A DNA stretch of 64,000 nt from Escherichia phage S127 BCL3 (OQ626344); one strand, 5' to 3'; counted from the stretch's first letter, positions 40,857-54,510 are shown. A program made the numbers and translations. Notes: generated by a model not told the origin, from the sequence alone.

Positions 40857-40997
40857 ATGACTGATTTTACTGAAGCTTTAATGATGGCCTTATCCGTTTT
40901 AGCGCTATCTGTGTGTTTTGGGGCGTTATTCACATCTCTGGTTAAAGTTTTACATACCATATTATCACCCAAGGAGCACAGTAATGACGAAGATTGA
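40857..40997 (+). CDS. 46-aa hydrophobic micro-protein
   Basis: MTDFTEALMMALSVLALSVCFGALFTSLVKVLHTILSPKEHSNDED; AAGAGGTGAGGA RBS; overlaps next gene start. Confidence 0.4.
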   Translation: MTDFTEALMMALSVLALSVCFGALFTSLVKVLHTILSPKEHSNDED

Positions 40998-41235
40998 CTT
41001 AAATGCTGGCGACCATGTTGTTGTCAAATGCATCGGGGACTATCTTGGATTCACAATCGGCAACACTTACGAGGCGGTAGTGGCGAAGGTTTATCATGAT
41101 AAAGTCCTCAGCCTTGTATTTGACTGCGATGATGACGGAGATGACCGTTACGTCTGTGAGGTGCTGGCACGTGACGATAGTGAAGACCAGAAATTCCTGG
41201 TTATCGAACTGAACGGTATTTTTGTAGAACGTTAA
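40984..41235 (+). CDS. hypothetical acidic protein
   Basis: Start MTKIDLNAGD; 83 aa. Confidence 0.45.
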   Translation: MTKIDLNAGDHVVVKCIGDYLGFTIGNTYEAVVAKVYHDKVLSLVFDCDDDGDDRYVCEVLARDDSEDQKFLVIELNGIFVER

Positions 41236-41263
41236 TTTAAAACAATATAAGGAGACTCTTACT

Positions 41264-41569
41264 ATGGCTAAATCTAAAGTTGAACTGTTCACCTCTCTGC
41301 CTTCTGACACTGCAGAGCGTGATCGCCTCCGTAAAACAATTGAAGAGCTGGTGGAACTTCAGCTTCAGATTAAAGATCTGAAAGACGCTATCAAGGATAT
41401 TATTCTTGTCGAGAAACAGGATCACCTGTATTCTCCTAAGTTTATCAAGTCATTGGTGGCTACCGAATTCGATATCCGCTACGAAGCTGAAAAACGTCGA
41501 GCTAAAATCGAAGAAGAGGTTGAGCACATGTCTGAAGCAGACATTCTGTTCAAACGCTCTGCAGAATAA
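41264..41569 (+). CDS. hypothetical coiled-coil protein
   Basis: 101 aa; AAGGAGA RBS; followed by strong terminator. Confidence 0.5.
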   Translation: MAKSKVELFTSLPSDTAERDRLRKTIEELVELQLQIKDLKDAIKDIILVEKQDHLYSPKFIKSLVATEFDIRYEAEKRRAKIEEEVEHMSEADILFKRSAE

Positions 41570-41575
41570 CAACGA

Positions 41576-41601
41576 AGAGGGGTCTTGGCCCCTCTTTTTT
41601 A
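41576..41601 (+). terminator. rho-independent terminator
   Basis: AGAGGGG-tcttgg-CCCCTCT followed by TTTTTT. Confidence 0.7.
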
Positions 41602-41623
41602 CTATCTATGGAGGAGATCAGAA

Positions 41624-41950
41624 ATGCTAATGCCGATTACTGTAAAAGAGCTAAATGAACGTGATGCAGGTGGCCTGTGGCCTGCACGGAAAATACGCTG
41701 CGTTTATATGAAAGAGAATCTTGAGCACCTTGATCAGCAGATTGCGGTTGGCGATATTTTCGAAGTTCTCTATTCTAATCGTCGCAACTGGGAAACCATT
41801 CAACCTTCCGGTTTTGTTCTTGCCAGACTTGATACTGGAGAAGTGATTATCCCTGGGCTGGACATTGTCTTCGAAATTATCCAAGAGTGGGATCCTGATA
41901 AGATTAAATATGAAGAGTTATTCGGTGAAGGTATTATCAAGCCTGTGTGA
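41624..41950 (+). CDS. hypothetical protein
   Basis: Start MLMPITVKEL with GGAGGAG RBS. Confidence 0.5.
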   Translation: MLMPITVKELNERDAGGLWPARKIRCVYMKENLEHLDQQIAVGDIFEVLYSNRRNWETIQPSGFVLARLDTGEVIIPGLDIVFEIIQEWDPDKIKYEELFGEGIIKPV

Positions 41951-41958
41951 GGTGGATT

Positions 41959-42258
41959 ATGTCTACAACGACAGCTAAATACTCCTATATGCCAGCAACC
42001 TCAGCAGAAATAAACTTCAGTTTCGATGTGTTTCCATTGTTTGAGGTGGTTCTGGCATACCCAACAATACTATCTACTCCTGAATCCCTTGTACCTGTTA
42101 AGTTGCAGAACGCTATGCACTCCATGCACTACAACAATAAATGTAGGCACAGATGGTGTCAAGACGAGGAAAAAGATCTGGAGAGTTTGAAAGATTTTGA
42201 CAGTCACCTTTTGACACCTTTTAGTTCCTCAAACCTAGACAAGCCTTCATGGGTATAG
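41959..42258 (+). CDS. hypothetical protein
   Basis: Start MSTTTAKYSY with GAGGTGG RBS. Confidence 0.45.
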   Translation: MSTTTAKYSYMPATSAEINFSFDVFPLFEVVLAYPTILSTPESLVPVKLQNAMHSMHYNNKCRHRWCQDEEKDLESLKDFDSHLLTPFSSSNLDKPSWV

Positions 42259-42283
42259 CAAAGTATCAAATTTAAGGCACATA

Positions 42284-42309
42284 GGACGCTCTGTGGCGTC
42301 CTTTTCTTT
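42284..42309 (+). terminator. rho-independent terminator (end of plus-strand operon)
   Basis: GGACGC-tctgtg-GCGTCC followed by TTTTCTTT. Confidence 0.65.
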
Positions 42310-42580
42310 ATCTGGTGAACGATTCCATACCTTAAGCAGTTAATCTCATTACAGAGCGTTTAAAGGCGGCTTACAAGCAACTCTCTATTTCGAGCGTAGC
42401 GAGAACGCACGTCCGTTTTGACCAAAATCACCATACGCTCGGATTTTAACCAAACCCTCGCGGTGTTTCTGTTGACACATTACCGCTCCTGAAATATGCT
42501 TATAGCATCGACACGTTCCAGCCATATGTCGATAAAGTCTTATTTTTTAAACATGTTGCCGGAATACTTACGGGTGGAAC

Positions 42581-52514: not shown

Positions 52515-52577
52515 GGCGTTTACTCCTTTCTCTCTTTGATGTGGTTAGTATAGCTAACCTGTTTAAGATGTCAAGCT

Positions 52578-52748
52578 TTAAATAAAATCACTGTCAAAAT
52601 ATAACGCCCCGTTTTCATCCACGATCTCGATCTTCTTCTTTCCTAGCTCCAGGATCATGTACCATGCTTGATCTTGTGCTGCCTCCAGGTTGTTGTACCG
52701 TGCAATATTTGCGCCTTTTTCTGTTACGTAAAACATTTTATTGCCCAT
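52578..52748 (-). CDS. hypothetical protein
   Basis: Start MGNKMFYVTE with AAGAGGGAAAC RBS; 56 aa. Confidence 0.4.
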   Translation of the reverse strand: MGNKMFYVTEKGANIARYNNLEAAQDQAWYMILELGKKKIEIVDENGALYFDSDFI

Positions 52749-53021
52749 GGTGTTTCCCTCTTGTTTGGAATTGCTCACAATGTAAGGCCTGTAAGTAAAC
52801 AACCTATAACAAAACATGGCCCCCTTTAAAATGCACTATGCTATAAAACGTTTGCCATGTCAATGATATTTTTAACGCCATAAAACGGCCCTAAGCGATG
52901 TTTTCAGGTTAAGAAAGGCGATTGCATAGGTAGGGGCCTTTATGGCGCTTGTGGGGCCAACCAGGGGCGATATCGGCGGGATAGAAATAAAAAGCCCCGC
53001 ACAATGGCGGGGCGTTGGTTG

Positions 53022-53219
53022 TTATCTGTCTTTATGGCGGTATCGTTCTGCCTGTCGTTCACGTTCCAAAAGTAGGCCAGGCAATTTACGATCATAATGA
53101 TTTCGCCAGATCTTTCCAAATCTTTTTGGCTTATTCAGTTTATTGTTACGCTGGCGGCGTTCCGGCAACTCTTCGGAATCATGAGGACGCTTTACAATTT
53201 TTTCGAAATTAATTTTCAT
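53022..53219 (-). CDS. hypothetical basic protein
   Basis: Start MKINFEKIVK with AAGGGGGAAG RBS; Arg/Lys-rich. Confidence 0.4.
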   Translation of the reverse strand: MKINFEKIVKRPHDSEELPERRQRNNKLNKPKRFGKIWRNHYDRKLPGLLLERERQAERYRHKDR

Positions 53220-53562
53220 AGCTTCCCCCTTTACTGATTTCAATATTTGCCTGAATCGCCCGGATACGGCGTTTTATAACCTCCTGATCCGTGCAATCAT
53301 ACCCCCAAAAGTCTACAATTTTTGCGCCTCCAGCTTTTAAGCGGTATAGTGTTTCTTGCATCTTGTAAGCTGGGATCGGTCGTGGTGTTACCTGGTCGCC
53401 TTTCTCATCCTTGTACTTGATAATATAATCTTCATTGTCGTTGAATACCCAAAATGGGTATTCTGTAAAGGCGTTGCTCTCTTTTTCGTTTTTGGATTGG
53501 ATCTTGTTTACAATTAAAGCCGTAGCAATAGCGCCAATGATAAAACTTGCACCGCTGATCAT
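53209..53562 (-). CDS. hypothetical protein with N-terminal TM/signal segment
   Basis: Start MISGASFIIGAIATALIV with AAAGGAG RBS. Confidence 0.45.
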   Translation of the reverse strand: MISGASFIIGAIATALIVNKIQSKNEKESNAFTEYPFWVFNDNEDYIIKYKDEKGDQVTPRPIPAYKMQETLYRLKAGGAKIVDFWGYDCTDQEVIKRRIRAIQANIEISKGGSYEN

Positions 53563-53637
53563 GTTACTTTCTCCTTTCATGGTGTTAATAAATTATCTTT
53601 ATAGATGGCCCTGCAGCCAGGACCACCGAAAAAATAA

Positions 53638-53883
53638 CTATTTCACAATGCCTACAAAACAGATCCCGCCTTCCCCGACGTAGGCAATATCGGTCACTTT
53701 GTAGTCGGTCAAGATCTGTTTATTCAGATCATTAATAAAATCGGTCATTGCGTTGGTGTAGTTGTCTTCCATGTCTAGGGAATAATCCCAGGTGTAAACC
53801 TTTTTACGTCCGAAGCCTTTTACCATGATCCGGGCGCTTTTGGTGTTGGTAGGGGCATAGTATTTGGTGATTAGTGCTGCCAT
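53638..53883 (-). CDS. hypothetical protein
   Basis: 81 aa; GAGGAG RBS; downstream of 45-bp repeat promoter. Confidence 0.5.
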   Translation of the reverse strand: MAALITKYYAPTNTKSARIMVKGFGRKKVYTWDYSLDMEDNYTNAMTDFINDLNKQILTDYKVTDIAYVGEGGICFVGIVK

Positions 53884-53923
53884 GGTTTTAACTCCTCATT
53901 AGTTCAGTGTTAACAGTGTAAAG

Positions 53924-53971
53924 TTTACTTTATTGATGGCCCTGGAGTCAAGGCCATCTAAAAATAAATTT
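53924..53971 (-). promoter_or_regulatory. 45-bp repeated promoter element, copy 2
   Basis: Near-identical to copies at 49918 and 54544; minus strand TTGACT-N18-TAAACT inside palindrome GATGGCC..GGCCATC. Confidence 0.5.
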
Positions 53972-54311
53972 ACTCGTTTTCTTCCAGTTCTGCAAGCTCT
54001 TCTTTCACTTCTTCGAGCTCTGTCTGCAATTCCTGGTATTCTTCATCGTCCTCAATATCCAGGCTGTCGATGTAGTCGCTAAATCCGCAACGGTAAGCGA
54101 TAGGATCTAGCTCCTTGAGGATACGCGACGGAAGAAAAGAAATGTTTCCGATCATGATTTCGCCGTAGACCTCGTCTAACCATTCATCATAGTTTTCGTC
54201 GTACTTGTCCTCGTCGATTTCAAAGTTATCGATCTTGTTCTCAAGGTCCGCGATCTGTTTTTTCAGTGCGGCAACCTGAATAGCTTTTTCTGCGGCGGTC
54301 ATAGTGGTCAT
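53970..54311 (-). CDS. hypothetical acidic coiled-coil protein
   Basis: 113 aa; AAGGAGAAAAC RBS; promoter TTGACA..TATACT and GGGAA..TTCCC 5' hairpin upstream. Confidence 0.5.
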   Translation of the reverse strand: MTTMTAAEKAIQVAALKKQIADLENKIDNFEIDEDKYDENYDEWLDEVYGEIMIGNISFLPSRILKELDPIAYRCGFSDYIDSLDIEDDEEYQELQTELEEVKEELAELEENE

Positions 54312-54390
54312 GGTGTTTTCTCCTTTTGTGTGTTCTGGGAAGTTTTCCCGTTTACGTGTTTAAGTATACCGATTTAAGTTAGCTTGTCAA

Positions 54391-54510
54391 TTAAAAATTT
54401 AAGAAAAATTTTGCAAAACTGTTAGCGCTACTCATTAACATTTGCGCCAGGATGTAACCGACAACGCAAACGATAATAGTTACCTTTGTGTATTGGCGTG
54501 TAGTGCTCAT
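54391..54510 (-). CDS. 39-aa hydrophobic micro-protein (tentative)
   Basis: MSTTRQYTKVTIIVCVVGYILAQMLMSSANSFAKFFLNF; overlaps promoter of downstream gene, so uncertain. Confidence 0.25.
   Translation of the reverse strand: MSTTRQYTKVTIIVCVVGYILAQMLMSSANSFAKFFLNF

Follow-up and report, generated by a model that had tools for sequence, protein, structure and literature searches.

Imm and Sp of Escherichia coli phage T4 are short, non-essential early membrane proteins for superinfection exclusion, with one or two membrane passes, encoded among small open reading frames (ORFs) behind sigma-70-type promoters in variable regions. Bacteria have small membrane proteins of their own, among them the regulators AcrZ, MgrB and SgrT and the type I toxins TisB, Hok and TimP, which bind a larger membrane protein or disturb the bilayer. 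Here, we report on seven micro-ORFs (A to G), each predicted to encode a peptide with one transmembrane (TM) helix, in a 64,000-nucleotide (nt) stretch of Escherichia phage S127 BCL3 (OQ626344), referred to below as the window. A to E had been proposed by an earlier sequence-only reading; F and G were added in the follow-up. The closest described genes are those of phage rV5, for which Kropinski et al. (2013, Table S3) listed ORF156 (46 amino acids [aa]), ORF170 (44 aa), ORF173 (46 aa), ORF181 (39 aa) and ORF193 (39 aa), each as a "membrane protein, 1 TMD" (TM domain), and assigned no function to any of them (PMC3606486).

The predicted peptides resemble Imm, Sp and a third T4 protein, Ac, as short membrane proteins of a large virulent coliphage encoded among small ORFs with sigma-70-type promoters, and differ from them in length (27-46 aa here versus 51-97 aa in T4) and in the absence of sequence similarity. 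Ac is thought to act on AcrAB-TolC, as cited in PMC13250531. The size class and single hydrophobic helix are also those of AcrZ, MgrB and SgrT and of TisB, Hok and TimP, and by this analogy a shared mode of action is likely, although no NCBIfam or Pfam model was matched.

The sequence-only reading had described five micro-ORFs of 34-46 aa, and all five were found exactly where it had placed them:

40857-40997, plus strand: micro-ORF A, 46 aa (rV5 ORF156/gp151, phrog_16755)
47235-47369, minus strand: micro-ORF B, 44 aa (rV5 ORF170/gp165, phrog_16005)
47973-48077, minus strand: micro-ORF C, 34 aa (the C-terminal 34 aa of rV5 ORF173/gp168, phrog_14631)
50307-50426, minus strand: micro-ORF D, 39 aa (rV5 ORF181/gp176, phrog_13629)
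54391-54510, minus strand: micro-ORF E, 39 aa (rV5 ORF193/gp188, phrog_16391)

A six-frame scan of 39.5-56 kb returned 30 hydrophobic ORFs of 20-60 aa; hydrophobicity by itself is within chance expectation. The observation is confirmed because conservation, and not hydrophobicity, singles out the five. Relatives were compared at 14 related loci (11 GenBank phages and three contigs, the only related ones that IMG/VR yielded) and are 90-97% identical in DNA. A to E are intact wherever the region is present, with starts and stops aligned across these loci, so that the conservation check proposed in the sequence-only reading came out in their favor in every genome carrying them. Only A to E and F were both intact in all relatives having the region and lowest in their own frame for the ratio of nonsynonymous to synonymous change (dN/dS). 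The remaining 23 of the 30 hydrophobic ORFs were broken in at least one relative, most of them in the majority, or lay antisense to conserved genes. On the strand of the surrounding genes in 45.6-64 kb, B, C, D, E and G are the only hydrophobic ORFs of 20-60 aa.

In the proposed frames, dN/dS was 0.27 for A (p=1.6e-4), 0.62 for B (p=0.02, a weak signal), 0.38 for C (p=4e-4), 0.33 for D (p=4e-6) and 0.23 for E (p=3e-6); these are crude parsimony counts of synonymous and nonsynonymous change, and the p-values are indicative only. Shifted frames of the five mostly gave 0.5-3 and contained stop codons. Indels kept the frame, with a 3-nt insertion in D (MiataMamis and locus L004) and a 3-nt deletion in B (L004), and the locus alignments showed start signals kept even where the DNA upstream is replaced.

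Each of A to E has one hydrophobic segment of 17-19 residues (Kyte-Doolittle mean over 19-mers, 2.0-2.7). Summed Hessa-scale insertion energies (scale values of Hessa et al. 2005) ranged from -2.1 to about 0 kcal/mol for A to E and from -4.8 to about 0 kcal/mol across A to G, compared with +14.6 for the soluble product of a neighboring gene, X. All seven have one TM segment, with charged tails in A and G only. The single TM helix predicted earlier for each of the five is thus supported by the Kyte-Doolittle profiles, the Hessa sums and the "1 TMD" calls (TMHMM/Phobius) of the rV5 paper. The good ribosome-binding sites (RBSs) claimed for all five were borne out in part: those of A (AAGAGGTGAGGA) and D (AGGAGGAAAGGGGGAG) are strong and those of C (GAAGAGGAA) and E (AAAAGGGG) moderate, whereas B has no Shine-Dalgarno sequence, its ATG lying 2 nt past the TAA of the upstream gene (47372-47656). 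On frame-specific selection, ORF integrity, start signals, insertion propensity and positional analogues, A to E are well supported as real, conserved protein-coding genes for membrane peptides, in agreement with the central claim of the sequence-only reading.

That reading had also called the five unannotated, which fails together with the novelty it implied. The GenBank rV5 record annotates all of them (gp151, gp165, gp168, gp176 and gp188), as do the BASEL phages and others; A51.2 names several of them "putative membrane protein". A to E occupy the same slots with the same neighbors as their rV5 orthologues, at 84-94% amino-acid identity; the one difference is rV5 ORF173, annotated at 46 aa versus the 34 aa that comparative data favor for C. 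Annotation is uneven: phage 203 omits A, B and E, and tblastn matches land on unannotated DNA in several records, so "unannotated" may be true of some records and not of the literature. The five have been catalogued without function since 2013, and their novelty is nil. The modest new points are the 34-aa form of C, the unannotated F and G, and a repeated promoter cassette that accounts for loss of a module containing E.

Matches of A to E to hidden Markov models of the PHROG families cover the whole profile with E-values of 8e-22 to 1e-35, and all five families are of "unknown function". Searches of Pfam, NCBIfam and PDB sequences found no family of known function for A to E, with no similarity to a type I toxin, holin or other named family; NCBIfam gave no hit to any of the five. 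In a tblastn search of 50,697 phage records, A was found in 117, D in 118, E in 112, C allele 1 in 67 and B allele 1 in 41, all rV5-like. A collection of 5.8 billion proteins held 22 clusters of D (queried as an alignment) and 11 of A, on contigs of 130-142 kb or fragments. Distribution thus suggests that the micro-ORFs are lineage-restricted, with A, D and F apparently core to the genus and B, C and E accessory or allelic.

The two micro-ORFs added to the five are:

40472-40555, plus strand: micro-ORF F, 27 aa, MINLAKVATALLIICWIVTLALSLVFH; absent from the list of the sequence-only reading
50410-50535, minus strand: micro-ORF G, 41 aa, MDRTTTEIIFLVMCVVIILLGTIANHVTANRRKGGDDDTQG; read in a different frame within the 3' half of gene X

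F occupies an 89-nt gap between two genes, its ATG overlapping the stop codon of gene 40188-40475 (ATGA). All 11 relatives have it intact (dN/dS, 0.34-0.46); it was annotated in none of the records inspected and gave no PHROG match. L004 has a 27-aa counterpart with 40% identity and a GTGA overlap. An IMG/VR relative, L003, is far more divergent (flanking proteins only 33-41% identical) and has in the same slot a 26-aa hydrophobic ORF with the same ATGA overlap and no measured similarity to F.

G lies within gene X (50447-50668, rV5 ORF182), and its stop is 17 nt inside D. The frame of X has a dN/dS of 0.28 (p=3e-4) before the ATG of G and of 1.12 after it, whereas the frame of G has 0.40 (p=0.011); G passes the frame test only when counted from this internal ATG. 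Purifying selection on X is confined to its first ~45 codons, and its stop position varies (73 or 81 aa), which suggests that its public annotation is probably wrong or incomplete. The ATG of G is present in 13 of 13 sequences with an (A/G)AGGA motif 11 nt upstream, and its insertion energy (-4.8 kcal/mol) is the best of all seven. G was called in none of the records inspected, and the 5.8-billion-protein collection held only 2 clusters of it. We considered that X and G might be joined by a frameshift fusion; neither a slippery site nor a stop-codon shift site is evident, and separate initiation of G is simpler because of the conserved ATG and the AGGA motif. An AlphaFold2 model of X from a single sequence (predicted local distance difference test score, 44.7) was uninformative on disorder of the overlapped tail. 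The arrangement recalls Rz/Rz1 of phage λ, in that G overlaps X in another frame and each frame has its own selection signal; it differs in that G lacks a lipoprotein signal and X a TM domain, and in having no link to lysis genes. X and G were accordingly rejected as an embedded spanin pair: X lacks a hydrophobic segment (+14.6), and the sole Cys of G follows L-V-M, which is not a lipobox (Met at -1).

As a working explanation, each of A to G would be a peptide of 27-46 residues whose single membrane-spanning helix inserts into the inner membrane of the infected host. The peptides of the minus-strand block (B, C, D, E and G) would probably be read by host RNA polymerase from sigma-70-type promoters, because that block holds several matches of 11-12 of 12 positions to the sigma-70 consensus; early expression of these peptides appears likely from the same sequences. 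Consensus sigma-70 promoters and terminators frame the gene units. Within the membrane, the peptides would act by binding larger host or phage membrane proteins, a step suggested by the small units that they share with other envelope proteins: F and A with an 87-aa TM protein (40565-40828), G and D with a 2-TM protein (50646-51017), and B with a signal-peptide protein (47372-47656). They might thereby remodel or protect the infected envelope, for instance through superinfection exclusion or modulation of host membrane proteins, and would not serve as a lysis cassette. Variability or loss among close relatives, as seen for B, C and E, is typically a mark of genes interacting with the host or with competing phages. 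Taken as a whole, the explanation toward which we lean, by a modest degree, is that these are genuine Vequintavirus single-helix inner-membrane peptides that act on larger membrane proteins in envelope remodeling.

Several points weigh against this explanation. Homology to any protein of known function was not found in Pfam, NCBIfam, PHROGs or PDB sequences, and the proposed mechanism rests on analogy for that reason; the operon neighbors have no known function except for a predicted transcriptional regulator downstream of A. Translation and membrane location are predicted only, as mass spectrometry of rV5 covered virions only (PMC3606486). The dN/dS counts are crude and come from 7-14 related, non-independent sequences; selection on B is weak (0.62), and an antisense frame scores similarly. 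The insertion energies of D and E are borderline (about 0), and the helix of D holds two Glu. The plus-strand block of A and F also holds a virion protein (rV5 ORF152), which makes early timing less certain for these two.

The roles listed in the sequence-only reading, generic but reasonable, were superinfection exclusion, lysis timing and action as membrane-targeting toxins. Peptides that depolarize or permeabilize the inner membrane and shut the host down, like TisB, Hok and TimP, would fit the size, single TM helix and hydrophobicity found here, which are those of type I toxins, and the TimP model matched G faintly, below its threshold (E=0.027; 14.7 bits, cut-off 45). No toxin-family model reached threshold, however, seven early depolarizing peptides would harm a phage that needs an energized cell, and the E-x4-E-x3-G-x-G motif of D and the conserved tail of E resemble specific contact surfaces and not generic pore formers; we therefore regard a toxin role as unlikely. 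An Rfam scan of 39.5-56 kb returned only SurC, below threshold (28 bits versus a gathering cut-off of 80), and no dedicated antisense-RNA search was made beyond this. Lysis timing is the least likely of the listed roles, because the endolysin (phrog_90, E=5e-55; 11238-11708, plus strand) is 29-43 kb from the micro-ORFs, in the other strand block, and four of the five ORFs lie in the sigma-70-promoter block. Holins usually have two or three TM domains, a highly charged C terminus and late expression. In support of a holin, antiholin, pinholin or spanin-like function, the 2-TM protein beside G and D is labeled "putative holin" in BASEL records, and the embedding of G in another frame of X recalls Rz/Rz1. 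Against it, G lacks a lipobox and X a TM segment, the micro-ORFs sit among small ORFs with sigma-70 promoters, B, C and E are dispensable in natural isolates, and the rV5 authors proposed a different holin, gp129 (PMC3606486). Its chances appear poor, below those of a toxin role.

The peptides might also have no host target and act as small subunits or assembly factors of phage-only membrane complexes, the 87-aa TM protein being the partner of F and A, and the 2-TM protein that of G and D. The order of F, TM protein and A is retained in L003, and D stands beside a multi-TM protein both there and in the window, though the proteins are different. Since D occurs in L003 without G, X or the 2-TM protein, loss of B leaves its partner in place, and C and E have no membrane-protein neighbor, this reading is about as improbable as that of toxins. 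Finally, the ORFs could be non-functional, chance frames held open through close kinship or in DNA conserved for promoters, terminators or leader translation. The 90-97% DNA identity of the relatives, the 30 hydrophobic ORFs that arise by chance in 16.5 kb, the position of E between two promoters and the weak signal of B would all agree with that. The other 23 hydrophobic ORFs are nevertheless broken in relatives as described above, and the synonymous excess is specific to the proposed frame. C and B keep their length and hydrophobicity across alleles of heavily diverged DNA, and L003 keeps D (52% identity) and the A-like and F-like slots among flanking genes that are 33-41% identical. The conservation data appear largely to exclude non-function, which we consider very improbable.

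A bolder form of the envelope-remodeling explanation, to which we give only a slim chance, would make A to G a battery of in-membrane inhibitors, each directed at one host membrane protein (for instance a transporter, a receptor or entry factor used by rival phages, or a membrane-anchored defense effector). The D helix, E-x4-E...G-x-G-x-Y-F, would then be a docking surface; G would be a true overlapping gene, with the tail of X free to evolve; and the promoter cassettes described below would reflect shuffling, new to Vequintavirus, of the kind known from T4-type phages, moving peptide genes between phages.

As reported, the finding matters little, the five genes having long been published without function. 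Public annotation is inconsistent, with some peptides omitted, C started inside a hairpin in rV5, and F and G uncalled; for a phage group employed in biocontrol and therapy of E. coli O157, there is now a list of seven conserved membrane micro-proteins that can be put to the test. Natural knock-outs exist (Murica and MiataMamis for B, ECP26 for E). If it were true that any of the peptides blocks rival phages or host membrane function, this would be relevant to the design of phage cocktails.

The window phage is placed by its matches as an rV5-like E. coli myovirus of the genus Vequintavirus. By megablast, positions 40500-55000 matched 255 phage records, all of them rV5-like Vequintavirus, and identity to the best was 91-97% across almost the entire query; records named "Campylobacter phage" belong to the same group. 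The corresponding rV5 region was described as "88 mainly small ORFs" interrupted by ~2.6 kb without ORFs (PMC3606486). Its counterpart lies where the plus-strand block ends at ~43.1 kb and the minus-strand block starts at 46.08 kb. Between these convergent blocks, 43100-45660 (~2.5 kb; GC content, 0.39) has few genes. "No observable ORFs" was already stated for the rV5 counterpart (PMC3606486), and some annotators place tiny ORFs there. A hydrophobic ORF at 44191-44334 (minus strand) is intact in 10 of 12 relatives, but its frame signal is not clear.

A has an acidic N terminus, a TM segment at residues 7-25 and a charged C-terminal tail; its final 14 nt overlap the next gene, and it is intact in 12 of 12 loci. 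A promoter was found by consensus scan:

40809-40837, plus strand: candidate sigma-70-like promoter TTGACG-17-TATAGT, just upstream of A

With this promoter, A would be the first gene of a unit followed by gene 40984-41235, the predicted regulator (41264-41569) and a terminator (41574-41597). Other Vequintavirinae genera retain the regulator gene that neighbors A. A itself was sought beyond the rV5-like phages and does not extend to these genera: its slot is reduced to a gap of ~50 nt in the records of Mydovirus and Seunavirus that were inspected, and in Certrevirus PBES 02 it is taken up by unrelated annotated genes. L003 has in this slot a 48-aa ORF with the acidic N terminus, TM segment, charged tail and 14-nt overlap of A. 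Outside the range of the sequence-only reading, the window has a further 39-aa hydrophobic micro-ORF with A-like architecture (33671-33790, plus strand; MFQAMFIEMLSGVLLLVAILGGAALMYNYLEKGDSNDKK), which by length and approximate position is probably rV5 ORF131 ("membrane protein, 1 TMD"). BLASTP found no similarity of A to either ORF, and the three are positional or architectural analogues only. Near F, the rV5 record (L001 187-457) divides the 95-aa gene of all other relatives (window 40188-40475) into overlapping gp148 and gp149, a sign of either a frameshift or a sequencing error in this reference.

The gene upstream of B opens with a typical signal peptide, MKKMIAVVALVVGLNAPVMA. The lack of an RBS and the ATG 2 nt after the upstream TAA suggest that B is translationally coupled to it. 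B has two C-terminal alleles and is cleanly missing from Murica and MiataMamis, though the partner gene remains. An exhaustive phmmer search of 1.84 billion representative proteins found only 3 clusters, all of 44 aa and 57-91% identical; membership in Pfam DUF7396 was rejected (16.4 bits versus a gathering cut-off of 27), the same search having given only three near relatives. A 63-aa gene adjoining B (47035-47230, minus strand) matches jumbo coliphages and Salmonella phages (310-380 kb) at 84-95% nucleotide identity. The similarity ends shortly before B, which points to a recent horizontal transfer among phage groups that are unrelated.

C has two alleles, MKQKLIDA... and MLEKIFTV..., whose 5' halves differ strongly in DNA; both are exactly 34 aa long, hydrophobic and share the C terminus ATMANMILSS[NH]GIG. 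Upstream is a hairpin:

48100-48123, no strand assigned: hairpin AGGTGGTGGACCATTCCACCACCT, containing the ATG (48113) and apparent RBS of the 46-aa rV5 form of C

The start and "RBS" of the 46-aa form are the hairpin arms, and this start is absent from allele 2, AlexBoehm and Murica (half of the relatives); the form was rejected. The 34-aa coordinates of the sequence-only reading are better, because the hairpin start is not conserved and the PHROG profile for C has 34 positions. At 48078-48125 and equivalents, every allele has a GC-rich hairpin between the preceding gene and C, with differing sequences (GGTGGTGGA..., GGGCGGGGC... and GGGGCTGTGG...); structure is conserved and sequence is not, and the element is probably a terminator or an RNA-stability element.

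D has a basic N-terminal part of 17 aa followed by an invariant C-terminal TM segment, W-x-E-I-[IL]-A-x-E-x-[LM]-x-G-x-G-x-Y-F. With its two glutamates, this helix looks like a specific contact surface and less like a generic anchor. D would be the last gene of its unit, because a terminator directly follows its stop:

50282-50302, minus strand: intrinsic terminator GGCCCCCGATCCCTGGGGGCC with a T-run, directly past the stop of D and annotated as a terminator in Murica

In this unit, which ends with the strong terminator, the 2-TM protein (123 aa) precedes G and D. A larger membrane protein adjoins D in the window as well as in L003, but the two proteins differ; in L003, D is followed by a 116-aa multi-TM protein (4324-4674) unrelated to the window neighbors.

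E consists of a TM segment predicted to have its N terminus inside, followed by a conserved tail, SSANSFAKFFLNF. Two predicted regulatory elements flank it:

54554-54584, minus strand: promoter cassette TTTTTAGATGGCCTTGACTCCAGGGCCATCA, a 31-nt element upstream of E
54363-54390, minus strand: predicted near-consensus sigma-70 promoter TTGACA-16-TATACT, beginning at the base after the stop of E (rV5 "P192")

The predicted promoter at 54363-54390 drives gene 53970-54311. Identical copies of the 31-nt element occur at 49928-49958, 53934-53964 and 54554-54584 (minus strand), and these are the only three in the window; each extends to ~50 nt and is placed immediately past a stop codon. A 7-bp stem, GATGGCC/GGCCATC, encloses the -35 box, TTGACT, in its loop, and the -10 box, TAAACT, comes next. 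Because the stem is not followed by a T-run, terminator activity of the cassette is doubtful. The module delimited by copies 2 and 3 consists of E and gene 53970-54311. Precisely that module is missing from the closest relative, ECP26, where a single cassette remains between the outer flanks of copies 2 and 3; the module appears to have been lost in ECP26 by recombination between the repeated cassettes. Such indel behavior has been described for promoter-early stem-loop (PeSL) cassettes of T4-type phages (Arbiol et al. 2010, PMC2839356). The likeness to PeSL lies in a repeated ~50-nt cassette that combines a sigma-70-like promoter with a stem-loop, flanks an accessory module and contains the ends of the ECP26 indel; the differences are the phage group and sequence, the -35 box inside the loop, and the missing T-run.

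Elsewhere in the window, seven tRNA genes are clustered at 1600-2411 (minus strand). One ARAGORN call among them (1844-1942) has an unusual four-base anticodon and a length of 99 nt; it may represent a degenerate tRNA or one with an intron.

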